Part shown: positions 5,940-64,000 of the stretch, piece by piece
Numbering within the stretch: the first letter of the stretch is position 1
Layout: each line of letters opens with the position of its first letter
Assembly (NCBI GenBank): GCA_964016885.1
Contig: OZ024740.1
Location: 47,182,001 to 47,246,000 of the forward strand
Direction: 5' to 3'
Length of the DNA stretch: 64,000 nt
DNA from: Eledone cirrhosa
Taxonomy: Eukaryota
Translations under genes and position numbers: made by a program
The notes under the pieces: generated by a model
Told to the model about the DNA's origin: nothing
The model's database searches: none
Seen by the model: only the letters and a program-made list of their open reading frames with translations

Positions 5940-7045
5940 AACTAAAAATAAAAAAGGTGGGTATGTGAAGGGTAAGGTAGAAAGTAGGGGGGAAAAATAA
6001 AAATAAATGACATAGGAAAAGGTTTAAATATAAGGGGAGATAAGGGAGAAAAAGAATATAAGAGTACAGAAAGTGAATTCAGAAGGTAAAAAAAATCGTA
6101 GTGGATGTAAAGCGTAGAGAGCAGAGAAGAAGTTCAAGGTGGTTGAGTTATCGTAGGAATGTCAATCCAGTTACAGATCAGATGTGATTTCAGGTGAGGA
6201 CAACATCTGAAGATCTTGGTCTTGGAGTTCAGGCAAGTTGAAATGGCTTTCAAGTTTTGTAAAATCCTAAATTTTTCAGTGGTACACATAGAACATTTCT
6301 TTGTGCCCCTTTGGTACTCCCTCGAATGGTCTAAAATAGATCAATCGATAGAGTACGGGGTGTTTTTATCCTTGAATTCCCACACCTTATTTGCGAGAGC
6401 CGTTGCTGTTCTTTTACCGGAGTGTTTAAAAGAAGCGACATGTGCATAAAACCTGGTTTTAAACCTGTCCTGGGTCATGCCAACATATCGTTCACTCCTG
6501 GCTGGCTGGTTGTTAATTAAAGGTGTCACTTTGGTCTCATATACAACGGATTTGGTGTTACATTTGCCCTGTAATGGGCATTCATCCAGCTTCCTGCAAC
6601 TGCATCCTGGATTTATTCTCGTACGATTGGAACTAGTGATTTTAGACTTCATTGATGGACAGCAAGAGTAACTGATTTTAACTACATTTCTATTAAATAT
6701 CTTATAATATCTATGATTAGGAGGAAAATGTTTATCTAAGAGGTCAAGGAATTTCCTTCCTACATTAGTTTTGACAGTTAGAGAGAAGTGGGTGTAAACC
6801 AAATAATTTTCCTTTTCCTATTATTGTGGTTAGTTTTAGGGGGGGGGGGGGTAGGTAAATAATTAATTTGTTCTGTAAATCCGCTGTTATTAGGGGTTTT
6901 ATTAAAAATGACTAGAGACGAAGATACGGCTAATGTTGGGAATAAGATTTTTAAAAACAATAGGGGGATAGCAAGACGCTTTGTGTATATATCTAAGATT
7001 TTCGTTAGGTTTATGATAAGGTTTAAAAGAGGCAGTAAGTAGATC
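5940..7045 (-). mobile_element. Penelope-like retroelement remnant (RT-EN linker plus GIY-YIG endonuclease), frameshifted
   Basis: ORFs 6778-7050 (RKRKIIWF) and 6341-6802 (FLDLLDKHFP...KIFNRNVVKISYSC, CSCRKLDECPLQGKC, VVYE...YVGMT...FKTRFYAH) match the Penelope Zn-knuckle plus GIY-YIG layout. The 5' side abuts the 41-bp array. Confidence 0.9.
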
Positions 7046-7049
7046 AAGA

Positions 7050-10000
7050 GCCTGACGTCATCACTCCTTCCTTTCTCAGTCATCTCTAGTGCCTGACGTC
7101 ATCACCTCTTCCTTTCTCAGTTATCTCTAGTGCCTGACATCATCACTCCTTCCTTTCCCTGTCATCTCTAGTGCCTGACGTCATCACCTGTTTCGTTCTC
7201 AGTCATCTCTAGTGCCTTACGTCATCGCTTCTTCCTTTCGCAGTCATCTCTAGTGCCTGACGTCATCACACCTTCCTTTCTCAGTCATCTCTAGTGCCTG
7301 ACGTAGTCACACCTTCTTTTCTCAGTCATCTCTAGTGCCTGACATCATCATTCCTTCCTTTCTCAGTCATCTCTAGTGCCTGTCGTCATCACCTCTTCCG
7401 TTCTCAGTCATCTCTAGTGCCCGACGTCATCACTCATTCCTTCCTCAATCATCTCTACTGCCTGACGTCATCACTCCTTCCTTTCTCAGTCATCTCTAGT
7501 GCCTGACGTCATCACTCCTTCCTTTCTCAGTCATCTCTACTGCCTGACGTCATCACTCCTTCCTTCCGCAATCATCTCTAGTGCCTGCCGTCATCACTCC
7601 TTCCTTTCTCAGTCATCTCTAGTGCCTGACATCATCACTCCTTCCTTTCTCAGTCATCTCTAGTGCCTGACGTCATCACCTCTTCCTTTCTCAGTCATCT
7701 CTAGTGTGTGACGTCATCACCCCTTCCTTTCTAAGTCATATCTAGTGCCTGACGTCATCACTCCTACCTTCCTCAATCATCTCTAATGCCTCACGTCATC
7801 ACTTCCTCATTCCTTAGTCATCTCTAGTGGCTGACGTCATCACCCCTTCCTTTCTCAGTCATCTCTAGTATGTGACGTCATCACCCCTTCCTTTCTCAGT
7901 CATCTCTAGTGCCTGACGTCATCACTCCTTTCTTCCTCAATCATCTCTAGTGGCTGACGTCATCACACCTTCCTTTCTCAGTAATCTCTAGTGCCTGACG
8001 TCATCACTCCTGCCTTCCTCAATCATCTCTAGTGCCTGACTTCATCACCTCTTCCTTTCTCAATTATCTCTAGTGCCTGACATCATCACTCCTTCCTTCC
8101 TCAATCATCTCTAGTGCCTGCCGTCATCACTCCTTCCTTTCTCAGTCATCTCTAGTGCCTGACATCATCACCTCTTCTTTTCTCAGTCATCTCTAGTGTG
8201 TGACGTCATCACCCCTTCCTTTCTCAGTCATCTCTAGTGCCTGACATCATCACTCCTTCCTTTCCCTGTCATCTCTAGTGCCTGACGTCATCACCTCTTC
8301 CGTTCTCAATCATCTCTAGCGCCTTACGTCATCGCTCCTTCCTTTCGCAGTCATCTCTAGTGCCTGACGTCATCACACCTTCCATTCTCAGTCATCTCTA
8401 GTGCCTGACGTCATCACACCTTCTTTTCTCAGTCATCTCTAGTGCCTGACATCATCATTCCTTCCTTTCTCAGTATTCTATAGTGCCTGCCGTCATCACA
8501 GCTTCCGTTCTCAGTCATCTCTAGTGCCTGACGTCATCACTCATTCCTTCCTCAATCATCTCTAGTGCCTGACGTAATCACTCCTTCCTTTCTCAGTCAT
8601 CTCTAGTGCCCGACGTCATTACACCTTCCTTCCTTAATCATCTCTAGTGCCTGGGGTCATCACTCCTTCCTTCCTCAATCATCTCTAGTGCCTGACGTCA
8701 TCACACCTTCCTTCCTCAATCATCTCCAGTGCATGACGTCATCACTCCTTCCTTTCTCAGTCATCTCTACTGCCTGACGTCATCACTCCTTCCTTTCTCA
8801 GTCATCTCTACTGCCTGACGTCATCACTCCTTCTTTTCTCAGTCATCTCTAATGCCTGACGTCATCATCCCTTCCTTCCTCAATCATCTCTAGTGCCTGA
8901 CGTCATCACCCCTTCCTTTCTAAGTCATCTCTAGTGCCTGACGCCATCACTCCTTCCTTCCTCAATCATCTCTAGTGCCTCACGTCATCACTTCCTCATT
9001 CCTTAGTCATCTCTAGTGGCTGACGTCATCACCCCTTCCTTTCTCACTCATCTCTAGTATGTGACGTCATCACCCCTTCCTTTCTCAGTCATCTCTAGTG
9101 CCTGACGTCATCACTCCTTTCTTCCTCAATCATCTCTAGTGCCTGACGTCATCACACCTTCGTTTCTCAGTAATCTCTAGTGCCTGACGTCATCACTCCT
9201 GCCTTCCTCAATCATCTCTAGTGCCTGACGTCATCACTCCTTCCTTCCTCAATCATCTCTAGTGCCTAACGTCATCACTCCTTCCTTTCTCAGTCATCTC
9301 TAGTGCCTGACGTCATCACTCTTTCCTTTCTCAGTCATCTCTAGTGCCTGACGTCATCACCCCTTCCTTCCTCAAGCATCTCTAGTGCCTGATGTCATCA
9401 CTCCTTCCTTTCTCAGTCATCTCTAGTACCTGACGTTATCACCCCTTCCTTGCTCAATCATCTCTAGTGCCTGACGTCATCACTCCTTCCTTTCTCAGTC
9501 ATCTCTAGTGCCTGACGTCATCACTTCTTCCTTCCTCAATCATCTCTAGTGCCTGACGTCATCACCCCTTCCTTTCTCAGTCATCGCTAGTGTGTGACGT
9601 CATCACCCCTTCCTTTCTCAGTCATCTCTAGTGCCTGACGTCATCACTCCTTCCTTCCTCAATCATCTCTAGTGCCTTACGTCATCACTTCTTCATTCCT
9701 TAGTCATCTCTAGTGGCTGATGTCATCAACCCTTCCTTCCTCAATCATCTCTAGTGCCTGACGTCATCACCTCTTCCTTCCTCAATCATCTCTAGTATCT
9801 GACGTCATCACTCCTTCCTTTCTCAGTCATCTCTAGTGCCTGACGTCATCATTCCTGCCTTTCTCAATCATCTCTAGTGCCTGCCGTCATCGCTCCTTCC
9901 TTCCTCAATCATCTCTAGTGCCTGAGGTCATCACTCCTTCCTTTCTCAGTAATCTCTAGTGCCTGACGTCATCACTCCTTTCTTTCTCAGTAATCTCTAG

Positions 10001-13000
10001 TGCCTGACGTCATCACTCCTGCCTTTCTCAGTCATCTCTAGTGCCTGACGTCATCGCTGCTTCCTTCCTCAATCATCTCTAGTGCCTGACCTCATCACCT
10101 CTTCCGTTCTCAGTCATCTCTAGTGCCTGACGTCATCACTCCTTCCTTTCTCAGTCATCTCTAGTGCCATACGTCATCACTTCTTCGTTTCTCAGTCATC
10201 TCTAGTGCCTGACGTCATCACTCCATCCTTCCTCAATCATCTCTAGTGCCTGACGTCATCACACCTTCTTTTCTCAGTTATCTCTAGTGCCTGACGTCAT
10301 CACACGTTCCTTTCTCAGTTATCTCTAGTGCCTGACGTCATCACACCTTCCTTTCTCAGTCATCTCTAGTGCCTGACGTCTTCACCCTTCCTTTCTCAGT
10401 CATCTCTAGTGCCAGACGTCATCACACCTTCCTTCCTCAATCATCTCTAGTGTACGACGTCATCACTCCTTCCTTTCTCAGTCATCTCTACTGCCTGACG
10501 TCATCACTCCTTCCTTCCCCAATCATCTCTAATGCCTGACGTCATCACTCCTTCCTTCCGCAATCATCTCTAGTGCATGACGTCATCACTCCTTCCTTAC
10601 TCAATCATCTCTAGTGCCTGACGTCATCACCTATTCCTTTTTCAGTTATCTCTAGTGCCTGACGTCATCACTCCTTCCTTTTTCAGTCATCTCTAATGCC
10701 TGACGTCATCATCCCTTCCTTCCTCACTCATCTCTAGTGCCTGACGTCATCACCCCTTCCTTTCTAAGTCATCTCTAGTATGTGACGTGATCACCCCTTC
10801 CTTTCTCAGTCATCTCTAGTGCCTGACGTCATCACTCCATCCTTCCTCAATCATCTCTAGTGCCTCACGTCATCACCCCTTCCTTACTCAGCCATCTCTA
10901 GTGCCTGAAGTCATCACTCCTTCCTTCCTCAGTCATCTCTAGTGTACGACGTCATCACTCCTTCCTTTCTGAGTCATCTCTAGTGCCTGACATCATCACT
11001 CCTTCCTTCCTCAATCATCTCTAATGCCTGACGTCATCACTCCTTCCTTCCGCAATCATCTCTAGTGCCTGACGTCATCACTCCTTCCATTCTCGGTCAT
11101 CTCTAGTGCCTGCGTCATCACTCCCTCCTTTCTCAGTCATCTCTAATGCCTGACGTCATCATCCCTTCCTTACTCAATCATCTCTATTGCCTGACGTCAT
11201 CACCCCTTCCTTTCTCAGTCATCTCTAGTATGTGACGTCATCACCCCTTCCTTTCTCAGTCATCTCTAGTGCCTGACGTCATCACTCCTTCCTTTCTCGG
11301 TCATCTCTAGTGCCTGACGTCATCACTCCTTCCTTCCTCAATCATCTCTAGTGCCTGACGTCATCACTCCTTCTTTTCTCAAGCATCTCTAGTGCCTGAC
11401 GTCATCACTCCTTCCTTCCGCAATCATCTCTAGTGCCTGGCGTCATGACTCCTTCCTTTCTCAGTCATCTCTAGTGCCTGACGTCATCACTCCTTCCTTT
11501 CTCAGTCATCTCTTGTGCCTGACGTCATCACTCCTTCCTTCCTCAATCCTCTCTAGTGCCTCACGTCATCACTTCCTCATTCCTTAGTCATCTCTAGTGG
11601 CTGACGTCATCACCCCTTCCTTTCTCAGTAATCTCTAGTGCCTGACGTCATCACTCCTTTCTTCCTCAATCATCTCTAGTGCCTGACGTCATTACACCTT
11701 CCTTTCTCAGTAATCTCTAGTGCCTGACGTCATCACTCCTGCCTTCCTCAATCATCCCTAGTGGCTGACGTCATCACTCCTTCCTTCCTCAATCATCTCT
11801 AGTGCCTAACGTCATCACTCCTTCCTTTCTCAGTCATCTCTAGTGCCTGACGTCATCACTCCTTCCTTTCTCAGTCATCTCTAGTGCCTGACGTCATCAC
11901 CCCTTCCTTCCTCAAGCATCTCTAGTGCCTGACGTCATCACCCCTTCCTTCCTCAATCATCTCTAGTGCCTGACGTCATCACTCCTTCCTTTCTCAGTCA
12001 TCTCTAGTGCCTGACGTCATCACCCCTTCCTTCCTCAAGCATCTCTAGTGCCTGATGTCATCACTCCTTCCTTTCTCAGTCATCTCTAGTACCTGACGTC
12101 ATCACCCCTTCCTTGCTCAATCATCTCTAGTGCCTGACGTCATCACTCCTTCCTTTCTCAGTCATCTCTAGTGCCTGACGTCATCACTTCTTCCTTGCTC
12201 AATCATCTCTAGTGCCTGACGTCATCACCCCTTCCTTTCTCAGTCATCGCTAGTGTGTGACGTCATCACCCCTTCCTTTCTCAGTCATATCTAGTGCCTG
12301 ACGTCATCACTCCTTCCTTCCTCAATCATCTCTAGTGCCTTACGTCATCACTTCTTCATTCCTTAGTCATCTCTAATGGCTGACGTCATCAACCCTTCCC
12401 TTTTCAATCATCTCTAGTGCCTGACGTCATCACCTCTTCCTTCCTCAGTCATCTCTAGTGTCTCACGTCATCACTCCTTCCTTTCTCAGTCATCTCTAGT
12501 GCCTGACGTCATCACTCCTGCCTTTCTCAATCATCTCTAGTGCCTGCCGTCATCGCTCCTTCCTTCCTCAATCATCTCTAGTGCCTGACGTCATCACTCC
12601 TTCCTTTCTCAGTAATCTCTAGTTTCCTGACGTCATCACTCCCTTCCTTTCTCAGTAATCTCTAGTGTCTGACGTCATCACTCCTGCCTTTCTCAGTCAT
12701 CTCTAGTGCCTGACGTCATCGCTGCTTCCTTCCTCAATCATCTCTAGTGCCTGACCTCATCACCTCTTCCGTTCTCAGTCATCTCTATTACCTGACGTCA
12801 TCACTCCTTCCTTTCTCAGTCATCTCTAGTGCCATACGTCATCACTTCTTCCTTTCTCAGTCATCTCTAGTGCCTGACGTCATCACACCTTCTTTTCTCA
12901 GTAATCTCTAGTGCCTGACGTCATCACTCCTGCCTTCCTCAATCATCCCTAGTGGCTGACGTCATCACTCCTTCCTTCCTCAATCATCTCTAGTGCCTAA

Positions 13001-15585
13001 CGTCATCACTCCTTCCTTTCTCAGTCATCTCTAGTGCCTGACGTCATCACTCCTTCCTTTCTCAGTCATCTCTAGTGCCTGACGTCATCACCCCTTCCTT
13101 CCTCAAGCATCTCTAGTGCCTGACGTCATCACCCCTTCCTTCCTCAATCATCTCTAGTGCCTGACGTCATCACTCCTTCCTTTCTCAGTCATCTCTAGTG
13201 ACTGACGTCATCACCCCTTCCTTCCTCAAGCATCTCTAGTGCCTGATGTCATCACTCCTTCCTTTCTCAGTCATCTCTAGTACCTGACGTCATCACCCCT
13301 TCCTTGCTCAATCATCTCTAGTGCCTGACGTCATCACTCCTTCCTTTCTCAGTCATCTCTAGTGCCTGACGTCATCACTTCTTCCTTCCTCAATCATCTC
13401 TAGTGCCTGACGTCATCACCCCTTCCTTTCTCAGTCATCGCTAGTGTGTGACGTCATCACCCCTTCCTTTCTCAGTCATCTCTAGTGCCTGACGTCATCA
13501 CTCCTTCCTTCCTCAATCATCTCTAGTGCCTTACGTCATCACTCCTTCATTCCTTAGTCATCTCTAATGGCTGACGTCATCAACCCTTCCCTTTTCAATC
13601 ATCTCTAGTGCCTGACGTCATCACCTCTTCCTTCCTCAGTCATCTCTAGTGTCTCACGTCATCACTCCTTCCTTTCTCAGTCATCTCTAGTGCCTGACGT
13701 CATCACTCCTGCCTTTCTCAATCATCTCTAGTGCCTGCCGTCATCGCTCCTTCCTTCCTCAATCATCTCTAGTGCCTGACGTCATCACTCCTTCCTTTCT
13801 CAGTAATCTCTAGTTTCCTGACGTCATCACTTCTTCCTTTCTCAGTCATCTCTAGTGCCTGACGTCATCACACCTTCTTTTCTCAGTTATCTCTAGTGCC
13901 TGACGTCATCACACCTTCCTTTTTCAGTCATCTCTAGTATGTGACGTCATCAGCCCTTCCTTTCTCAATCATCTCTAGTGCCTGACCTCATCACTCCTGC
14001 CTTCCTCAATCATCTCTAGTGCCTGACGTCATCACTCCTTCCTTTCTCAGTCATCTCTAGTATGTGACGTCATCAGCCCTTCCTTTCTCAATCATCTCTA
14101 GTGCCTGACGTCATCACTCCTGCCTTCCTCAATAATCTCTAGTGCCTGACGTCATCACTCCTTCCTTCCTCAATCATGTCTAGTGCCTGACGTCATCACT
14201 CCTTCCTTTCTCAGTCATCTTTAGTGCCTGACGTCATCACTCCTTCCTTTCTCAGTCATCTCTAGTGCCTGACGTCATCACCCCTTCCTTTCTCAGTCAT
14301 CTCTAGTGCCTGACGTCATCACCCCTTCCTTTCTCAGTCATCTCTAGTATGTGACGTCATCACCCCTTCCTTTCTCAGTCATCTCTAGTGCCTGACGTCA
14401 TCACTCCTTCCTTCCTCAATGATCTCTAGTGATTGACGTCCTCACCCCTTCCTTACTCAATCATCTCTAGTGTGTGACGTCATCACCCTTTCCTTTCTCA
14501 GTCATCTCTAGTGCCTGACGTCATCACTCCTTCCTTTCTCAGTCATCTCTAGTGCCTGACGTCATCACACCTTCCTTTCTCAGTCATCTCTAGTGCCTGA
14601 CGTCATCACACCCTCCTTTCTCAGTCATCTCTAGTGCCTGTCGTAATCACCCCTTCCTTTTTCAGTCATCTTTAGTGCCTGACGTCATCACCCCTTCCTT
14701 TTTCAGTCATCTCTAGTTCCTGACGTCATCACTCCTTCCTTCCTCAGTCATCTCTATTATGTTACGTCATCACCCCTTACTTTTTCAGTCATCTCTAGTG
14801 CCTGACGTCATCACTCCATCCTTCCTCAATCATCTCTAGTGCCTCACGTCATCAACCCTTCCTTACTCAGTCATCTCTAGTGCCTCACGTCATCAACCCT
14901 TCCTTCCTCTGTCATCTCTAGTGCCTCACGTCATCAACCCTTCCTTACTCAGTCATCTCTAGTGCCTCACGTCATCAACCCTGCCTTCCTCTGTCATCTC
15001 TAGTGCCTCACGTCATCAACCCTTCCTTTCTCAGTCATCTCTTGTGCCTCACGTCATCAACCCTTCCTTACTCAGTCATCTCTAGTGCCTCACGTCATCA
15101 ACCCTTCCTTCCTCTGTCATCTCTAGTGCCTCACGTCATCAACCCTTCCTTTCTCAGTCATCTCTAGTGCCTGACCTCATCACTCCTTCCTTTCTCGGTC
15201 ATCTCTAGTGCCTGACGTCATCACTCCTTCCTTTCTCAGTCATCTCTAATGCCTGACGTCATCATCCCTTCCTTTCTCAATCATCTCTAGTGCCTGACGT
15301 CATCACCCCTTCCTTTCTCAGTCATCTCTAGTATGTGACGTCATCACCCCTTCCTTTCTCAGTCATCACTAGTGCCTGACGTCATCACTCCTGCCTTCCT
15401 CAATCATCACTAGTGCCTGACGTCATCACTCCTTCCTTCCTCAATCATCTCTAGTGCCTGACGTCATCACTCCTTCCTTTCTCAGTCATCTCTAGTGCCT
15501 GATGTCATCACTCCTTCCTTTCTCAGTCATCTCTAGTGCCTGATGTCATCACCCTTCCTTCCTCAGTCATCTATAGTGTGTGACG
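7050..15585. repeat. Tandem satellite array, 41-bp unit, about 208 copies
   Basis: Consensus GCCTGACGTCATCACTCCTTCCTTTCTCAGTCATCTCTAGT, repeated contiguously with point variants and no unique spacers. Confidence 0.98.
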
Positions 15586-23784: not shown

Positions 23785-26700
23785 TGTCACTTCTTTACAG
23801 AAGAGGGCCATCTCTTCAACGTTGTGCTGAACGGGCATGAGCCCGCAAATGATTCCGCTAAATTGCCTCGCTCCTGCATACTGTTTTACAGATGTAACAC
23901 AAGTGAGGCTCTCAGGCAGTCCCTGAAGGTAACTTTCTCCTTATGCACTTTCATGTGCCGCTTGAGTCCAGCAGTAGACCTTCAGACTTTGTGTCACAGA
24001 TATCAAGCAAGCCTTTCAGGGAGAACACTAACATAATCGGCCGCAGACTGTTGATTGCTGTGAGCACTTAAATGACTAGCAAGCCCGTCACGAGAAAGAA
24101 CAACCTTTCCGCAGATGTTACAGACATGCTCCAACCGGATATGCTCTTTTAAACACAGAATGTTCTATACTTTTGACCCCAGACTTCTTCAACTAGATCT
24201 ACTCTCTGCCTCATCTTTCCAGTTCTCAACACTAATACCAAGTGTCTTCAGGTTGCCTTTGACAGCATCCTTGAAACATGTCTTGGGTTTGTGTCTGGGG
24301 CGTTTACCAAGAGTTAACTCTCCATACCAAATTCTCTTTGGCAGCCTCTCATCTCCCATCCGCCTTAAATGCCCCACCCAACGCAGTTAGTTTCGAATCA
24401 GTAGTTTTTCTAATCTGTATGTATTGGCGCGCTGCATAACAACGATGTCAGTTATAAATGACTGCCACTTAATGTTAAAAATACGCCTTAGGCATTTTTG
24501 GTGGAATCCTTTCAACCTCTTGACATGGTGTCGGTATGTGGTCCAAGTCTCACTAGAGTACAAGGGAGCAGTCAGGACACAGGATTGGTAGACACTTATC
24601 TTTGTGCCAAACGAGATGCTTCTGTCCGACCAGACTCGTCTATCCAACCTTCCTAATGCTTTATGGCTTTTTTATCCTTAGTTCAATTTCGGAGTTCAAT
24701 GAGCCATCTCTAGAGAGAGAATGCTACCAAGGTAGGCAAATGTAGCAACAACCTTCAACCTTTCACCCTTAACAAAGATGTTGGGCTCGGCGTAATCTTG
24801 CTCAGGAAATTGTGAGTAGATGACCTTGGCTTTTTCTGTGTTGATTGTAAGCCTGAAAGCATTGCATGACCCAGTAAACAGGTCCATAATTCCTGCATAT
24901 CTTTCTCAGTATGAGCAACAAGGTCTGCATCGTCAGCATAGAGCAACCGTCTGATGATAGATTGGAAAGTCTTTGATTTGGCCATAAAGCATGTCAAGTT
25001 AAAAACCTTACCCGTGGTCCTGAAACACAGATACATATTATCATCGCAATTCTGAAAGGCATACGTGAGAGTCACGGTAAATAAGATGAAGAACAGAGTT
25101 GGTGTCCCCTTGTTTAACCCCATTCCCGATGGATATGGTTTCAGACAGAGAACCATTGAAGTTAAGTCTCCCTTTCATATCTCGATATACCTGTTTGAAT
25201 AATGTCACAAACACCCGAGGGCATCACATCGTACCAAGAATCATCCAGAGGGAATCCTTATTCACGGAGTCAAAAGCTTTGGTGAGGTCAACCAAAACCC
25301 GATACATGTCAACCAAAACCTGATACATGTCAACAAAAACCTGATACAAAGCCATGTGATGTTCTAAACGTTTCTCCTGCAGCTGGCGAGCAAAGAAGAT
25401 GATGTCCACTGCGCCCCTGTTCGACCTAAATCCACATTGTGTCTCCGGAATCACTTGGTAAGCCTATTAAGAAGTTTTGCAAGAAGGGTTATTCCCAGAT
25501 AGTTGCCACACACCCACTTTGACTCCTTTCGCTTGAACAAGAAAACAAAGATCGCATCAGTCCAATCTTGAGAAACTGGAGTACTCGACCACATATCAGA
25601 AATCAAATGGTAAATCTCCACAGCAATTTTGTCACCTCCATGAAGCAAGACTACGACAGGAATACCATCAAGATCCGGTGCCTTCCCAGTGTTAATCTCC
25701 CTCAGTCTGTTGGACCTCTGGCAGAATAGGATCATCTGACATCTCATGAATTACATCCAATTGATGCAAGTTATTGATGATAAATACATTAAACTCCGTG
25801 GATTATAAAAGACATCAGTAAAATGCTCGCTCCAGCGTTCCATTATACTGTCCGAGTCTTTGAAAAGGACAGACTCGTACTTAGACCTGAGTGGTACCAA
25901 GGACACGGATTGAGGTCCAAAGGACTTATTGATTAGGTGGGTCAATGCCTTCAATAGCTGGTTTATCTGAGAATCATTTTCATCAAATCAGTCCCAATGT
26001 TTCTTTTTCCTGAGACCTAGGATTTCAATACTAGTGTTGTAGACCGCGGTCTTAAACCGACCTCATGTGCCGTCAAATTCAGTTTCTACAAAAGCCCTCC
26101 TCAGATCCTTACGAACCACCAGGTCCTGCAATCTCGACACATCTACGCGTCTAAGAAGCCTTGTTCCATTGATCATATTTTACGTTTGATGCGAAATTTC
26201 ATTTTGCTACGTATTAGAGCAAGATCTGTCCTACACTCAGCACCACGCATGGCCCAGACAATGCAGGCAACCTGAAGATATCGTTTAACATAAGCAAGAA
26301 TGTGTCCATGTTTGGATCTTGGGTGAATCCAAATAACTTTATGAGCGTCATTATGGTGGAAAAAGGAGTACATGGCCATTTCAAAATCAATGCTGAGCTG
26401 AAGAAGGTGCAGTCCATTACCATTCATGCTTCCAAGACCGGCATTAAAATCACCAAGGAGAAGAAGAATCTTGTCTGCATTTGGGAATTTCGCAATGGCA
26501 TATCGAAGATCTTGACAGAATGCCATTATGGATTCCTCTGATACTGGAGAGAGAGAAAGAGAGAGAGTCGGAGTATAAACAGAAAATATAGTCGAAGAAC
26601 GGTTGTGCGGTAAGGTAACTCTGAGGACGATGATTCTGTCACTAACACCATAGGGTTGCTCCAGATGGCTGATTATTTCAGTTTGAATGGCAAAGCCTAC

Positions 26701-27476
26701 ACTTCGCTCACGTTTTCCTTCCTCACGCTTACCCTCCAGAAATTGGTGTAACCCACTCTTGATTCTGCTAACTGATCCTCCCCATCCAGTCATGTATCAG
26801 AGAATGCAGCTATGTTAATACCACACTGAGCCAGTTCCTTTGCTATCAAACCAATTCGACGTTCGGGATTACCGGACATCCTGCTGTCAAAAAGTGTCCT
26901 TATGTTCCAAGTAACGACATTCATTGTGTACTTTTTGTTATAGTATCTCTTGGTTTTGCCCTGCTATTACGAACCACCACCAACCGAAGGCTGCTGGGTA
27001 GTTTGATGACTGTATAGGCTTTGTTTATGTCACCTTTTCTAGACCCAATTCATGTGGTATGAGTGTGTAGTGCATCCCTAGAAAGGGCTGCTCAGACGCT
27101 CAAGACTCCACCAAAGCATGTTGCTGTTCAGACTAAGTGCAGCGACGTTACGATAATACTAATGCCGCCCACATGCAGATTTGTGACTATGTGCTTTAAA
27201 CCGGTCGAATCTGCACACGTTGCCAATCCTCCATCACCGTCTGGCTTGTAAAGAAATATCTGCACATAAAGATGGCAATGCTACGTGCTTGTGTTACACA
27301 CGTATCACCCGTTCCATCCCCGCAGTTATGTATCCAGTGACAAGCCAAGACAAGATAACAGGACAGTTACATGTGTTTATTGTTTTGGAGTTTAACCTCT
27401 CCAGGGCGTATGGCCGTACTCACCAGGTCAATTGCAGGTTGATGAGGTTGACTCTATGGAGTTCACCCACCCTTTG
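23785..27476 (-). mobile_element. Near full-length decayed RTE (BovB-like) LINE with APE and RT domains
   Basis: MNVVTWNIRTL near 26924; APE motifs LLLGDFNA and WIHPRSKHGH; RT motifs PETQCGFRSNRG, VDLTKAFDSV and LLYADDA; GHLRRM...RLPKRIWYGEL. Many frameshifts. Confidence 0.92.
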
Positions 27477-30850: not shown

Positions 30851-31369
30851 TACAATATTAAATAAATGGAAAACTATATTTATAAAACCATATTTATTTC
30901 ATTATATATATTTCGGGGATATCATATTAACAATATGCTATGCCTTCATCAGACAAAATACAATATAAACAGTTTTATAGATAAATATATTCGACATACC
31001 GTAATAAACATCGACTTCATTTGAAGAGGTTTACGCTATTTTTCCATCTCTCTATTTTGTTCCATGCATTTCTGCATTTCTTCTTTTTCTTTTTCTTCTT
31101 TTTCTTCCTTTTCTTCGTTTTGTCTTTCTTTCTTTTTTCTCTCTTTTTTTTCTCTCTTTCTTTCTCTCTGTATAAAATTTTCACTGCTAGCGTAAACCTC
31201 TTCAAATGAAGTCGATGTTTATTACGGTATGTCGAATATATTTATCTATAAAACTGTTTATATTGTATTTTGTCTGATGAAGGCATAGCATATTGTTAAT
31301 ATGATATCCCCGAAATATATATAATGAAATAAATATGGTTTTATAAATATAGTTTTCCATTTATTTAAT

Positions 31370-39477: not shown

Positions 39478-39652
39478 ATTGTTTCTACGTTTGGCATAAG
39501 GCCAGCAATTACCCCGGTACATTACTGCTGCCTTATTTTATCGACCCCGTAAGGATGAACTCGGCGAGATTTGAACTCAGACCGTAAATGGCCGTAACTG
39601 TATGCTACAAAGCATGGCGTCCGACCTTCTATCGATACTGTCAATCCACTGC
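39478..39652 (-). mobile_element. SINE family A with an internal deletion
   Basis: Homology to the other family A copies. Confidence 0.85.
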
Positions 39653-39906
39653 CTATATATACACACACACACACACATATATATATATAAGTATGTATGT
39701 ATACGTACATACATATATGTATACAGACATACAGTAGTATGTATATATATACATACATGCACACATATATATATATGCACGTATCGGTTTACCGAACATT
39801 TATTATAATGCTCGGTTTGTTTGTTTGTAAACAAACAAACAGCCCGAATTACGCCGTACAGTGTTTAGGCAACCACGTCACCTTTTTGTTCAACACTGAC
39901 ACAGGA

Positions 39907-39949
39907 ACGATGTACTAGTTTCAAGCTTATTAGCTATCGTCAGCATCGT
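39907..39949 (-). ncRNA. Minimal type-I hammerhead ribozyme in a divergent retrozyme-like repeat (~39780-40115)
   Basis: acgatg-CTGACGA-t agct aata agct t-GAAA-ctag-TA-catcgt. Stem I extends via caggaa/ttcctg; octamer ATTTGCAT at 40024-40031. Confidence 0.85.
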
Positions 39950-40111
39950 ATACCTTCCTGCCAGATGGTTGAACGTCTGAAGGTATATACTTTCCTTATG
40001 TATATTAACGGCTGAGCAGCCTAATTTGCATATCGAGTGAGTTCAGTCGGTTGGGCGCACCGAAAACGATAAATGGAATAGAATGAAACGAAATTTCATT
40101 TCTCACTCTTA

Positions 40112-40148
<37 letters not shown>

Positions 40149-40172
40149 CAGTGGATATATATATATATATAC

Positions 40173-45415: not shown

Positions 45416-47431
45416 TATGGTATTTAAATAATGTTACTCGATAGTACTTATACAAAGTTTAGTATTTTGCACAACACAATTTCTATAGTTTTAGCACAAT
45501 ATTTTTTTTAGTTGTCATGCATACTAGTCGAGTTTTCTAACCAATTTATGTACGTTCTTATTCAACGTATATTCAGCAGTTATAGACGCATTGCGATTCT
45601 TATTCATATAGTGCTAGCGGTTATTAGTAGATATATCCTATTTTGGGAAACCATAGATGTCAGATTGTTATTGTCTGAGGTAATTTCTCGTATAGTGTAT
45701 AGACGAAGATGCGTGATGCTATGATGAGTTTGAAAAGTTGAATGATACACGTTTTCCTCTTTGCCATTGTTTGTTTAGTCTTTTGTAGTTTCTGCATATT
45801 GTGTTCTCTGTCGATATTTTGCATTTACTATTTCAGTTGATATGTTAATTAAGAAACAGTAGCGACACATCTTATTCTCTTGACCTTTGCAATGCTGCAA
45901 TTTTGTTAACTTGAGTTACTAATTAAATAGGTGTTATTCTTTATTGAACTATTTTGAAAACTTATAGTTAAAAAACTAATAAGTAATGTCTTGATAATTT
46001 ACTTTTACTAGCTCATTGGCATGATCCACAGTGTAGGAAGTAAGTTTCTAGCAAGCGGAGACGAGGAAGCATTTTCAAAGCTAAGATGAAGCTATGCCAC
46101 CAAACGTCCGCTAATAATGTCACTCTTATGCCATTAATTTTACAACTTCTTATTGTCACTTATAAGCGAACAATAACTTACTGGCCCACGTAGAAACGGT
46201 TTCTATTTATGAGATAAACTGTTTCCCAAACAAATGAACTGATTTACTTAGTAATATTTATTTCTTAGTCTTAGAACAACAACAAAAAAGCCTTTATTGT
46301 TGTGAAATGCTAATGTGAGGTCTTATGAATTAACTTAGCCAGCAAAAGCTAGGTTCTAACGATCGTTGGTGTAGTAATTCCAAAAAATGATTGAGTTTTC
46401 AGTGCAGAAGGATTGTTTTTTAATATTTTTCTTTCAGATTATTATCTTCCTTGTAAACTGTATAGAAACAGCTGCCTGAGAGTGTATTTATATTCTGTTT
46501 TATTGCTGTTACTTTTTTACATTTGAAAGGATCTTATATCTCCGCAGAAAAGTAATTTCGATATTCAACACCTTCACTATACAACTCTGTTGTAAATGAT
46601 GAGTCAAGGAAAATGGGTACACAGAAATTACTTTCTTTTGAATATTAACATTTCCAAGCAATGCAGTTTTATTTTATGGTTTTGCTTCTTAACTTTATTT
46701 GTAGTTTTCTTTTGTGGCACGATGGACATTTTCAGGTCTTGAAATGTCATGTAGTGTGTTTCAAATGTTGTAAACATTCAACTGGTTTTGTAGTCTATTT
46801 TTAATCTCATTATATCTTAATGGAGGGTATTGGCATTATATGTCATTACTAATGTATCTAAGGCATTGATTCAATTTTTCGTGTGTCTGTGTGGCCTTAT
46901 GCGCTCTCCTTCACACACCTTCAACAGAATAGATTCAAGCCCTTTTATTATTGATATTATCTGTTTTTTCTTCACCCATTTTTCAAATTATTATATCATT
47001 TTATTTTTTTATTTTGGTATTTAGTATTTTATATACTCGTATTATAATTCTGAACCCATTTAGATATCGCTGCTCATCATTTCTATCTTTTAGAATTTCA
47101 AGGAGGGGATTATATGTGGATTTGTTTTTACATTGCTTATATTTTTCACGTTATCCACATAGAGCAATTAGTTTATTTCTCTTCCATTAAACTGTACCTG
47201 CACATCTCTGCATTTGGGTGTTTCATTTTGTTTTTATTGGGGATACAATGCATTTTATACGTATAATGAATAATAATACTATTTTCTATATCTTATGTAT
47301 ATGAGGTTTTCGTTGTATATTTTTCTGCATTTCTTTTAATAATCCCCAAATTTTTAATTATTATGAATATTGTTTCTGTTTCCCCCCCAAATTCTGGCTA
47401 TCTCTATTTGCAGATATTATATTTGTATAGA

Positions 47432-48257
47432 AACAAATAACGAAACGAAATTAAATTTCGTTTCGCTTCTAACTCACTTTTGTATGACTGACGCTTAAAC
47501 AATTAAGTTAAAGTGTACATCTACATATGTATACGAAAGTATTAGTATGCATATAAATACACACATGTATACATATGTACATGTACTGAGTTTTTCACTA
47601 GACACTTTACAGTGAGTGTCAGCTAGTCTGTATGTAACCACACAGACGGACCGGGTTTTAGAGTCATACGAGTTTTCAAGGAAACACATTTCCTCTATTC
47701 TCCAGAGGGCCAGACAGGAATATTGGACTAGTTTCGATGTTATTACATCTCATCAGCAATATTTACCCATCTTCCGGCTTCTCTGGAGAATTGTAAAAGC
47801 ACATATCGTTGTATGCTTTTTCTATGAAAATTAGTAGTGGGTAGACTAATTTGCATAGAACGTGAGTCATTGTACGCACCGGTTCAGCGGAAACGATAAA
47901 AACAAATAACGAAACGAAATTAAATTTCGTTCATAGAAAAAGCATATAACGATATGTGCTTTTACAATTCTCCAGAGAAGCCGGAAGATGGGTAAATATT
48001 GCTGATGAGATGTAATAACATCGAAACTAGTCCAATATTCCTGTCTGGCCCTCTGGAGAATAGAGGAAATGTGTTTCCTTGAAAACTCGTATGACTCTAA
48101 AACCCGGTCCGTCTGTGTGGTTACATACAGACTAGCTGACACTCACTGTAAAGTGTCTAGTGAAAAACTCAGTACATGTACATATGTATACATGTGTGTA
48201 TTTATATGCATACTAATACTTTCGTATACATATGTAGATGTACACTTTAACTTAATT
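47432..48257. mobile_element. Retrozyme-like insertion: 469-bp non-coding unit with two hammerheads in inverted arrangement
   Basis: Segment 47432-47931 (more than one unit) plus inverted segment 47932-48257. Hammerheads at 47719-47763 (-) and 47995-48039 (+). TSD ATTATATTTGTATAGA at 47416-47431 and 48255-48270. Confidence 0.85.
47995..48039 (+). ncRNA. Type-I hammerhead ribozyme with canonical core and GUC site
   Basis: aatattg-CTGATGA-gatgt aata acatc-GAAA-ctag-TC-caatatt; stem I extends through TTCTCCAGAG..GCCGGA / TCTGGC..CTCTGGAGAA. Confidence 0.9.
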
Positions 48258-53898: not shown

Positions 53899-54672
53899 TC
53901 ATGTTGGTTTGAAATTTGTGCAATTGGTAGCTGCTTTGTGCCTACAGAAAATTGATCGTTCTATTTTGCTGTTAAGCAGCATCTTATCATACTTTAAAAT
54001 ATGGAATAGCTCCATATTGCAAAGTCCGCAGTGGGACATTCCATTGCTGTAGGCCCTTTCTCCCGATAATTTCGACCAGCTAATCCTATATTCTTGGTTT
54101 GTGTCCTTAAGCTGCCAGATTTTATTGGCCAGCGTTGTTGTGTTCTCTAGTCTACGGTTCTTCATAGAGTGTCTGTGAACGTACCATCTTTTTTTTAATT
54201 CCCCAGCCGTGGAACCTATGTAGTGCCATGTTAAGTTGCCCAAATTTATAGTACACAGGTACACCATACTCGATTCCAGGCATCTATTTTGTAGTGGGCA
54301 CTTATCCGGCAGGTGGCAGTTACAGTTGGAGGCCTTCCTGTGTGCAGGTTCTCCGTTACGGTTTTGTATGTTGTTATGGATGGGCTGAGATTTAGGCTTA
54401 TTAATGTTTTGTTGTGATGCGCCCTGGTGTGTGTGTGATTGTGATGTTATTATGTGTTTGCGTTTTGTATTTGGTACTATGGTGTATGTTGGTAGGTTAT
54501 TTTCTTTAGAGATTATTTTGTAGTTGATTTTATGTATGTGTGATTCTATGTTGGCTGCAGTAGAGTAAGAGAGTTTGATAGTTTTTCTGTTAAAGATTCT
54601 ATGGTATTTGTGTAGTTTAGGGAAGTGTTTGTCAATTAGCTTAAAGGATGTAGAAGGTAGTTTGGTTTTCAT
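53899..54672 (-). pseudogene. Penelope GIY-YIG endonuclease ORF fragment
   Basis: LIDKHFP...IFNRKTIKLSYS, CNC...CPLQNRC, MVYLC...YIGST...KRWYVH, CGLCNMELFHI...LLN. Confidence 0.88.
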
Positions 54673-55338
54673 AGAGGAGTTGAATATTGGATTGAACCAT
54701 AAGTATTTCCTATCTCTGGATTTTCTATAGTTCCTAGGGGTCCCTATATTAGTATTCGGTTCAGTTATTTCTGGTGCTCGTTATCTATTTCTATGTTTAG
54801 TTCTATGTTTTTTATTTCTATAGGTGTGGGTAGTGTAGCTGTCGTTAGGTTTGTTATTGCTGTCTCTATCTGGCATGTATTTGAGCCCCTCCTTATGGCC
54901 TGTCTTATGTAAAGCTGTTTGCATGTTCGTTAAAAATCTCTAGGTTAGAAGATAGGCAGGATATTGTGAGGGATATACTATGCGCTATGGAGTTGATTAT
55001 GGATCGAGGGTGGTTGGAGTTATAACTAATGTAGGTTAGATTCTCGTTATTTTTATGGAAGGGGTCTATTAATCCTGTGTTTAGGTTGAGTGTTACATCT
55101 AAGAAGTTTGCTTTTTTAGAGTTAAGTTCGAAAGTGATACCTAGCCCTAATTTGTTAAAGAAGGCTGATGTTTTTCCGTAATTTTTCCATGTTTTGATTA
55201 TTTAAGTTCTTAGCTAAAAGGAGTGCGTCGTCTCTATAAATTCCTCCTTGAAGGTTATTAAATTCCTTATATAATTCATGTGCTATATATATTCCAGCTA
55301 TGTCTGTTACCTGTGCTGAGTCGCTAGATCCCATTGTG

Positions 55339-55452: not shown

Positions 55453-55508
55453 CATCAGAAAAATAAAAATAAAGATGGTCTTACCCTTGGATAATTCTAC
55501 CAAACTTT

Positions 55509-57073: not shown

Positions 57074-57532
<459 letters not shown>

Positions 57533-62720: not shown

Positions 62721-62781
<61 letters not shown>

Positions 62782-62785
<4 letters not shown>

Positions 62786-64000
62786 AATTAAGTTAAAGAT
62801 GTACATCCATATATGTATACTGAATTACTAGTATGTATATGAATACACACACGTATACATATGTAGATGTACCAAGTTTTTTTCACTGGTCACTTTACTG
62901 TGAGTGGCCAGCTATTCTGTATGTAAACACACAGACAAACCGGTTTTTAGAGTCATACTGGTTTTTGAGGAAACACCTTTCCTCTATTCTCCAGAAAGCC
63001 AGACAAGGAATATTGAACTAGTTTCGTTGTTGTTATAACTCATCAGCAATATTTACCTATCTTCCGGCCTCTCTAGAGAATCGTAAAAGCACATATCGTT
63101 ATATGCTTTTTCTATGATAATTAGTAGTGGGCAGACTAATTTGCATAGAGTGTGAGTAAGTACCGGTTCAACGGAGACGATAAAAACAAATAACGAACCG
63201 AAATTAAATTTCGTTTCGTTTGTAACTCACTTTTGTATGACTGACGCTTAAACAATTAAGTTAAAGATGTACATCCATATATGTATACTGAAATACTAGT
63301 ATGTATATGAATACACACACGTATACATATGTAGATGTACCAAGTTACGATTCTCTAGAGAGGCCGGAAGATAGGTAAATATTGCTGATGAGTTGTAACA
63401 ACAACGAAACTAGTTCAATATTCCTTGTCTGGCTTTCTGGAGAATAGAGGAAAGGTGTTTCCTCAAAAACCAGTATAACTCTAAAAACCGGTTTGTCTGT
63501 GTGTTTACATACAGAATAGCTGGCCACTCACAGTAAAGTGACCAGTGAAAAAAACTTGGTACATCTACATATGTATACGTGTGTGTATTCATATACATAC
63601 TAGTATTTCAGTATACATATATGGATGTACATCTTTAACTTAATTGTTTAAGCGTCAGTCATACAAAAGTGAGTTACAAACGAAACGAAATTTAATTTCG
63701 GTTCGTTATTTGTTTTTATCGTCTCCGTTGAACCGGTACTTACTCACACTCTATGCAAATTAGTCTGCCCACTACTAATTATCATAGAAAAAGCATATAA
63801 CGATATGTGCTTTTACGATTCTCTAGAGAGGCCGGAAGATAGGTAAATATTGCTGATGAGTTGTAACAACAACGAAATTAGTTCAATATTCCTTGTCTGG
63901 CTTTCTGGAGAATAGAGGAAAGGTGTTTCCTCAAAAACCAGTATGACTCTAAAAACCGGTTTGTCTGTGTGTTTACATACAGAATAGCTGGCCACTCACA
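62782..64000. mobile_element. Retrozyme-like insertion: 468-bp unit, tandem plus inverted, three hammerheads; runs off the window
   Basis: About 1.2 units at 62782-63345, then more than 1.4 inverted units. Hammerheads at 63009-63053 (-), 63378-63422 (+) and 63846-63890 (+). Homologous to 47432-48257. Confidence 0.85.

Follow-up and report, generated by a model that had tools for sequence, protein, structure and literature searches.

The window (the whole stretch of DNA that was analysed, 64 kb from Eledone cirrhosa) contains copies of two families of hammerhead-bearing repeats: one copy of family B near 39.9 kb, and inverted pairs of family A copies near 47 and 63 kb (Table 1). Exact matches to the octamer ATTTGCAT were found at 40024, 47849 and 63139 and, inverted, at 63753, as the first-pass annotation had claimed. 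The octamer is part of a 12-mer: the window scan placed CTAATTTGCATA at 40021, 47846 and 63136 and its inverse at 63752, and at all four cited places the hammerhead is preceded by the 12-mer TATGCAAATTAG. The previously noted distances from the last octamer base to the hammerhead core on the ribozyme strand, 81 and 93 nt, were reproduced. Counted from the 12-mer start, the core follows after 89 nt in family B (39.9 kb) and after 101 nt in family A (47 and 63 kb).

Table 1. Repeat copies in the window and their parts; positions are those of the window
Feature	Position	Strand	Remarks
Family B copy, about one unit	39688..40114	-	96% to a tandem B monomer; starts with the previous unit's tail and stops at the short 3' end; flanked on either side by (TA)n
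Type I hammerhead, B	39908..39948	-	Stem I CGATG/CATCG, core CTGACGA..GAAA, helix III ACTAGT palindrome
TATATA	39984..39989	-	43 nt past the 12-mer start; host genes 47-49
U6-type proximal module	40013..40032	-	12-mer TATGCAAATTAG (40021-40032) plus 8 nt, 20.3 bits
TTTATCGTTTT block (AAACGATAAA in the first-pass annotation)	40063..40073	-	T4 run 34 nt before the 12-mer
Tail with GAAAT..ATTTC hairpin	40074..40114	-	Within the extension of about 56 nt by which the long 3' end exceeds the short one
Family A (A2) copy, long 3' end	47427..47931	-	98.6% to a tandem A2 monomer
Type I hammerhead, A2	47721..47761	-	Stem I TATTG/CAATA, helix III ACTAGT
U6-type proximal module, A2	47838..47857	-	22.7 bits; TATA-like box is CATACAAC
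Inverted adjoining A2 copy, 5'-truncated	47930..48238	+	Starts at unit +29, without 12-mer; short 3' end
Hammerhead of the inverted A2 copy	47997-48037	+	
Family A (A1) copy, 1.2 units	62781..63346	-	Short 3' end in (TA)n
Hammerhead of the A1 copy	63011-63051	-	
12-mer of the A1 copy	63136-63147	-	23.0 bits
Inverted adjoining A1 partial tandem	63345..64000	+	Continues beyond the window edge
Hammerhead of the inverted A1 copy	63380-63420	+	
12-mer of the inverted A1 copy	63752-63763	+	23.0 bits
Second hammerhead of the inverted A1 copy	63848-63888	+	

The A and B hammerheads are of type I. They have an intact core, a stem I of 5-7 bp, a palindromic two-pair helix III and predicted cleavage triplets GUC, GUU or GUA. 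The G10.1-C11.1 pair is kept in family A and absent in B and E. The B hammerhead of the window, predicted to be cut after 39913, is without this pair and falls below the Rfam gathering score; at that score Rfam gave no match in the window. Hammerheads with such a small helix III need a dimer to cut, according to PMC4209133. Further hammerhead-like cores occur in the window at 895(+), 30952(-), 31274(+), 60821(-) and 62481(+), those at 30952 and 31274 forming an inverted pair, and no 12-mer was scored near them in the window scan. Among the best 40 of 1101 candidates for genome relatives of the B copy, identity was 97-100%. The flanks of this copy (39645-39662 and 40140-40158) hold an inverted 16-bp repeat, ATCCACTGCCTATATA, in which the end of a SINE-like neighbour repeat seems to be mirrored across the insertion.

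By count alone the octamer is at chance level: the 64-kb window has six against 4.9 expected, 36 of 100 shuffles reach six, and two of the six (18794 and 50666) lie outside the repeat elements. The case therefore depends on the linkage between motif and hammerhead. When five A and B monomers were aligned, 135 of 354 columns were invariant and the 12-mer was the longest invariant run (12 columns; runner-up 7). The chance of a 12-column run somewhere in this alignment is about 0.011, assuming independence of columns. A five-monomer shuffle control (0/200) is too lenient, because shuffling also destroys the subfamily homology; the A1-B1 pair alone gave 8/200. The 39.9-kb element had been described as far more divergent than the others. 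Its stems I and II do differ from those of family A, but A and B are homologous along the whole unit.

Within family B, conservation was assessed in 65 copies selected without using the motif. The octamer was present in 52 of them and was the least variable block, with a minor-allele fraction of 0.025 (TATA region 0.033, flanks 0.053-0.158). The 12-mer is not strictly invariant in this family: it was exact in 29 of the 65 copies and replaced by TATGCAAATTGG in 22 and by TATGCATATTGG in seven. The test on the 12-mer (p=0.077, with copies that are non-independent and an 8-nt subfamily deletion that inflates one flank) is only suggestive of conservation. Among the variants listed in the sequencing runs X4-X6, most avoid the 12-mer, which is a weak test. 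The AP-1-like TGAGTCA pointed out in the 47-kb copy is present at 47863, but it occurs in only five of 31 A monomers, confined to one A subfamily, and in none of 33 other monomers, and was rejected as a feature of the family.

A search of the 3.0-Gb genome for the exact form '12-mer, 70-98 nt, CTGAYGA' found 26,975 units, 24,858 in the A/B form and 2,117 in others, with no match to the reversed-pattern control. The A/B hammerhead itself had 40,074 exact matches (control 0). Units with motif and hammerhead fall into about six families (A-F). The 2,117-unit set includes the abundant family E and the older C and D, and family F comes from two rows of the A/B-form search. Since C-F were found through the motif, the 12-mer is there by construction, and independent support in these families consists only of the TATA-like box and the hammerhead. 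Stems I and II differ among all six families; in E and C helix III is still a palindrome but spelled differently (ACTAGT, ATGCAT and ACAGCTGT across the families).

Searching from the hammerhead gave a second view of the linkage. In a sample of 30 A/B hammerheads, several of which share arrays, 23 had the 12-mer (0-2 mismatches) at the family spacing, one had it closer after an internal deletion, and six were truncated. For other hammerheads we used a pattern with a spacer of 16-19 nt (14 nt in the A/B families), which had 97 matches (control 1). Thirty of these were examined; six were A/B members. The other hammerheads are mostly without the 12-mer: 22 of the 24 sites had at least three mismatches to it and the remaining two had two. 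In a metagenome scan for the motif with a hammerhead start, 118 stretches were examined, 13 with a following GAAA and none with a stem II longer than 3 bp, and these matches were treated as chance.

The units are short, non-coding and tandem, with one hammerhead each. Thirty-one A monomers measured 466-469 bp, 32 B monomers mostly 424-511 bp and one E monomer 328 bp. Copies are partial tandems and arrays, one of about 30 units (G000:C1:5738327-5752334). Folding of the monomers, sense and antisense alike, was far stronger than that of shuffled sequence; as circles, A and B had z scores of -5.7 to -17.8 and E of -2.2, with only 15 shuffles each. Contigs from X4-X6 that close on themselves at unit length were rejected as evidence of circles, tandem DNA giving the identical shape.

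The octamer had been interpreted as the distal element (DSE) of snRNA promoters. The host's own genes do not bear this out. An exact octamer was found within 1.5 kb of none of 15 U2 loci, and in 14 U1 loci none was closer than -399 (nearest at -399 and -403), whereas in U6 it is proximal, at -76/-77. The comparison with U1, U2 and U6 proposed in the first-pass annotation instead showed that the 12-mer matches the proximal site of U6 and not that of U1 or U2, where the proximal pattern is AATTA near -88, ATCAGT near -57 and a TATA-like stretch at -30. The distal motif common to the three genes is TTACCTCCCTT, located at about -233 to -288 (near -260) and found in 6/6 U1, 3/4 U2 and 3/5 U6 loci tested; it may be ZNF143-like. 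It had no match at 0-1 mismatch in 64 repeat monomers.

The 12-mer (0-1 mismatch or a TGAG variant) was present at -77 to -80 in all seven promoter-bearing genes of the Pol III type-3 class (as defined in PMC3499247): three U6 types, the best of the U6atac matches, RNase MRP and two tRNA-Sec genes. Its position is -77 to -79, with TATAWA at -30, in U6, U6atac and RNase MRP, and -80, with TATA at -31, in the tRNA-Sec genes (Rfam 77.7 bits). A pattern built from U6 only had 36 matches genome-wide (control 0). By eye these included three U6 or U6-derived sites, two tRNA-Sec genes and 26 or 27 hammerhead-family copies; the detailed sorting, also by eye, was two U6, one truncated U6, two tRNA-Sec, ten A, four B, three C, eight D, one doubtful hammerhead copy, two octamer arrays and three unassigned. 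The blind recovery of the tRNA-Sec genes confirms that the 12-mer is the proximal module of the type-3 class. A matrix made from the seven host sites gave the four window element sites 20.3-23.0 bits and the next window site 10.6; leave-one-out scores of the seven host sites were 12.0-27.7 bits, and eight U1/U2 promoters scored at most 5.5 bits. Fourteen further U6 matches and five of six U6atac matches, in which there was no module at -78, were excluded from the matrix; they look like retrocopies or interrupted genes.

The proximal element of the repeats thus matches that of the host type-3 genes, and in families A, C and D the 8 nt after the 12-mer match as well. The 12-mer may be the octamer joined to the 5' edge of the PSE, and SNAPc, a POU factor or both may bind it. 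The earlier proposal that the repeats carry their own snRNA-type promoter stands as far as the motif matches a host small-RNA promoter and the mobile tandem unit that holds it has an intact type I hammerhead downstream of the motif; the assignment to the DSE does not stand. Since the 12-mer is proximal and, among the host genes examined, confined to the Pol III type-3 class, the appropriate analogy is U6 and not newt satellite 2, whose promoter is reported to be of the Pol II type.

The host survey yielded some further observations. Some copies in a U6 array (L096 and L119; C19:31.78-31.84 Mb) have about 190 bp of SINE-like sequence inserted between 12-mer and TATA box. The two tRNA-Sec genes (L428 and L429; C23:15.06 and 15.12 Mb) have identical mature sequences, lie in opposite orientation 58 kb apart and differ in their promoter spacers. 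About ten octamer-containing 12-mers with a period of about 21 bp occur at L430 (G000:C26:3141300-3142800) and at L132 (about 1500-1800), and at neither array was an RNA gene or a hammerhead found. The survey also defines the U6 promoter of this lineage, with an octamer-containing module at -78, TATA at -30 and a distal TTACCTCCCTT, which is useful for guide-RNA expression.

Downstream of the 12-mer the repeats follow the host layout less closely. The distance from 12-mer to TATA is 47-49 in 7/7 host type-3 genes; in the repeats it is +43 in B, +44 in E, +44 in A, where the box is weak (only CATATAAC), +41 to +48 in C and +48 in D (3 of 4 shown), so that A, B and E are 4-5 bp shorter than the host. 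Placing the start at TATA+30 gives a predicted start near 39959 for the B copy of the window. In A, B and E the next 12-mer is preceded, at 34-45 nt, by a T run, and the TTTATCGTTTT block is a candidate Pol III terminator. In B the long 3' ends of insertions lie within a few bases of the T run, 2-3 nt before the TTTATCGTTTT block, and loose contig ends agree for A. The first T4 is at +287 to +424, and the stretch free of T4 that follows the predicted start is no longer than chance (102-373 of 1000 shuffles). Each unit of the copied templates holds as many as four T4-T7 runs, all of them obstacles that Pol III would need to pass.

Insertion anatomy was surveyed in 70 B runs from 55 loci, anchored in the body and selected without the motif; 15 of 30 loci in one set were dropped as overlaps. 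The 3' ends were of two kinds, 32 long (35-41 nt before the next 12-mer) and 32 short (91-105 nt), with six others, and (TA)n followed 50 of the 70 runs. Of 13 inverted B pairs, two of which duplicate each other, ten combined one long with one short end, three had one irregular end and none had two alike; the 47-kb locus of the window is also an inverted pair with one long and one short end. The 5' ends of the 70 runs were scattered and did not clearly accumulate at either the predicted start or the predicted cut site: 13 fell at +63 to +98, but only seven within 12 nt of +75 (about four expected). As many as 44 of the 70 runs reach beyond a 12-mer position, and the copied RNA must therefore have exceeded the stretch from start to terminator, as would a multimer produced by read-through, or a circle derived from such a multimer. 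Insertions of Penelope-like elements (PLEs) are described as partial tandems with an adjoining inverted truncated copy, a one-sided tail and microsatellite targets (PMC8557442), and the repeats show this anatomy.

The window itself holds two related ORF fragments, 53899-54780 (-) and 6341-6817 (-), which are 28% identical (E 4e-22). Similar fragments are present in ten fetched loci. By motif the window fragments resemble Penelope GIY-YIG ends; Pfam gave no match for these ORFs. Their comparison with the fetched loci was at the protein level, and the survey yielded no autonomous partner sharing the tail. Upstream of the fragment at 53899-54780 there is a hammerhead-like core of another kind, at 55458 (-).

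The DNA thus displays a motif match, a TATA-like box behind the 12-mer, a hammerhead and a characteristic insertion anatomy. On this basis we consider it reasonably probable that these non-coding hammerhead tandem repeats spread as non-autonomous retroelements, transcribed by Pol III from a borrowed external U6-type promoter; the Penelope-type transposons are the likely agents that paste them back. The fuller reading, which we hold with slightly better than even confidence, is that at least six retrozyme-like families captured the host external U6-type Pol III promoter and keep it by rolling, more-than-unit copying through a Penelope partner; they would then be SINE-like retroposons with a type-3 promoter, in which the ribozyme carries the upstream promoter through the RNA cycle. 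Transcription, driven by the 12-mer module and TATA, would begin some 73-78 nt past the 12-mer, which is about 15-30 nt ahead of the hammerhead core. The T run that precedes the next 12-mer by 34-45 nt would end most transcripts, and some would read through tandem units. Acting as dimers, the hammerheads with their palindromic helix III would cleave these multimers into unit-length RNAs. Such RNAs would now include the promoter and may become circles. A reverse transcriptase/GIY-YIG endonuclease of the Penelope type would then likely start at a fixed 3' point and copy the multimer or circle into (TA)n. Copying would often exceed one unit and place the promoter upstream of the ribozyme again. 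More-than-unit copying would in this way allow an upstream promoter to be inherited and avoid the loss of an external promoter on retrotransposition.

The short TATA spacing of A, B and E and the T4-T7 runs to be crossed leave room for Pol II: the same module would be the promoter, the short spacing or the weak TATA would let SNAPc recruit Pol II, T runs would be ignored and multimers would come easily, in keeping with the multi-unit arrays. There are precedents in human RPPH1, a type-3 gene that carries both polymerases (PMC3499247), and in newt satellite 2, reported as transcribed by Pol II (PMC2220036, PMC6765202). The host's Pol II snRNA genes, however, are without the 12-mer and have the other proximal pattern, with ATCAGT near -57, while most repeat families retain a TATA-like box and family D has it at the host spacing. 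We regard relevant transcription by Pol II as unlikely, albeit worth serious consideration.

Two other explanations dispense with the promoter. The 12-mer contains a perfect octamer and is presumably an optimal POU site, so it might only boost expression as a POU/Oct site, without a core promoter, the RNA being read-through from host or PLE promoters. The 21-bp arrays of similar 12-mers at L132 and L430, which have neither gene nor ribozyme, and the lack of a visible start site among the 5' ends would fit such a role. The fixed orientation and the near-fixed distance to TATA-like box and hammerhead in all families would not, nor would the match of the following 8 nt to host type-3 promoters in A, C and D, and we find this explanation improbable. 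Just as improbable, in our judgement, is that the motif drives transcription no longer, being either a remnant from a common ancestor or a sequence preserved for the sake of RNA structure. That A and B are homologous throughout, that monomers of both strands fold so well, and that one B subfamily has switched to TATGCAAATTGG and one copy group has lost the octamer all speak for this explanation. Against it, the 12-mer is the longest invariant A/B block, exceeding the runs of the ribozyme core, and is retained in families whose remaining sequence barely aligns; young families at tens of thousands of copies imply, moreover, that master copies were transcribed recently.

Capture of a type-3 promoter would bear on a general constraint. 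Retrotransposition leaves an upstream promoter behind, which is why known SINEs depend on internal ones; if the preferred reading is true, hammerhead repeats are a way round this loss. The promoter of the Schistosoma Sm-alpha/Sj-alpha repeats is internal and tRNA-like, unlike the external, U6-type module found here. Those SINE-like repeats nevertheless share the order of Pol III promoter and then hammerhead, and they require tandem copies, since in a cleaved monomer the promoter has ended up at the 3' end (PMC6765202). Newt satellite 2 is similar, a tandem hammerhead repeat whose unit includes a promoter of the snRNA type (PMC2220036, PMC6765202); its reported promoter is of the Pol II type, whereas the present motif is specific to host Pol III type-3 genes and absent from U1/U2. 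With type-3 promoters (U6, U6atac, MRP) the repeats share a proximal element plus TATA (PMC3499247), but the octamer, which in human is part of the distal element, is here in the host's proximal module. Retroposons derived from snRNA genes exist as SINEU, with snRNA sequence and no recognisable promoter in the account of PMC4494074; the repeats described here are the reverse.

The closest relatives in kind are animal non-LTR retrozymes, with a type I hammerhead, short low-GC tandem repeats from dimers to long arrays, and a highly self-paired monomer as in retrozyme circles, for which PLEs were proposed as mobiliser (PMC7229834). By DNA-level tests the present repeats appear to work like a non-LTR retrozyme. 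They differ in unit length (328-511 bp against about 170-400 nt in that paper) and in that their DNA shows a promoter module of the host type-3 class and the insertion signature of PLEs. With PLEs and their pseudo-LTR hammerheads they have in common partial tandems, an adjoining inverted 5'-truncated copy, a tail at one end, microsatellite targets and a small palindromic helix III that needs a dimer; unlike PLEs they have no ORF, and the B tail is about 56 nt against 30-40 bp in the published elements (PMC4209133, PMC8557442).

The retrozyme paper leaves transcription and mobiliser open and names PLEs only as candidates, and its main text contains nothing on an own promoter, Pol III, octopus or cephalopods, although its supplement may list related sequences (PMC7229834). 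The accessible part of the squid genome paper offers only a count, 235 hammerheads (PMC6962438), and that of PMC11892584 nothing further on this lineage. In the open-access literature we came across no hammerhead repeats with a type-3 promoter and no mention of families A-F. A defined, mutable promoter and a clear PLE-type footprint make the transcription and mobilisation of hammerhead repeats directly testable. Present in about 27,000 exact copies, the module may also act on type-3 promoter factors across the genome, either competing for them or seeding them.

Some other features of the window were recorded. A minisatellite at 7050-15585 has a 41-bp period and about 208 copies, each with TGACGTCA, which we take to be a CRE-like palindrome. 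An ORF fragment at 26173-26796 (-) has a weak Exo_endo_phos match (E 0.02) and is likely a LINE endonuclease remnant. A 54-bp tandem repeat at 57074-57458 comprises seven copies with 99% matches, each closed by (GT)n.
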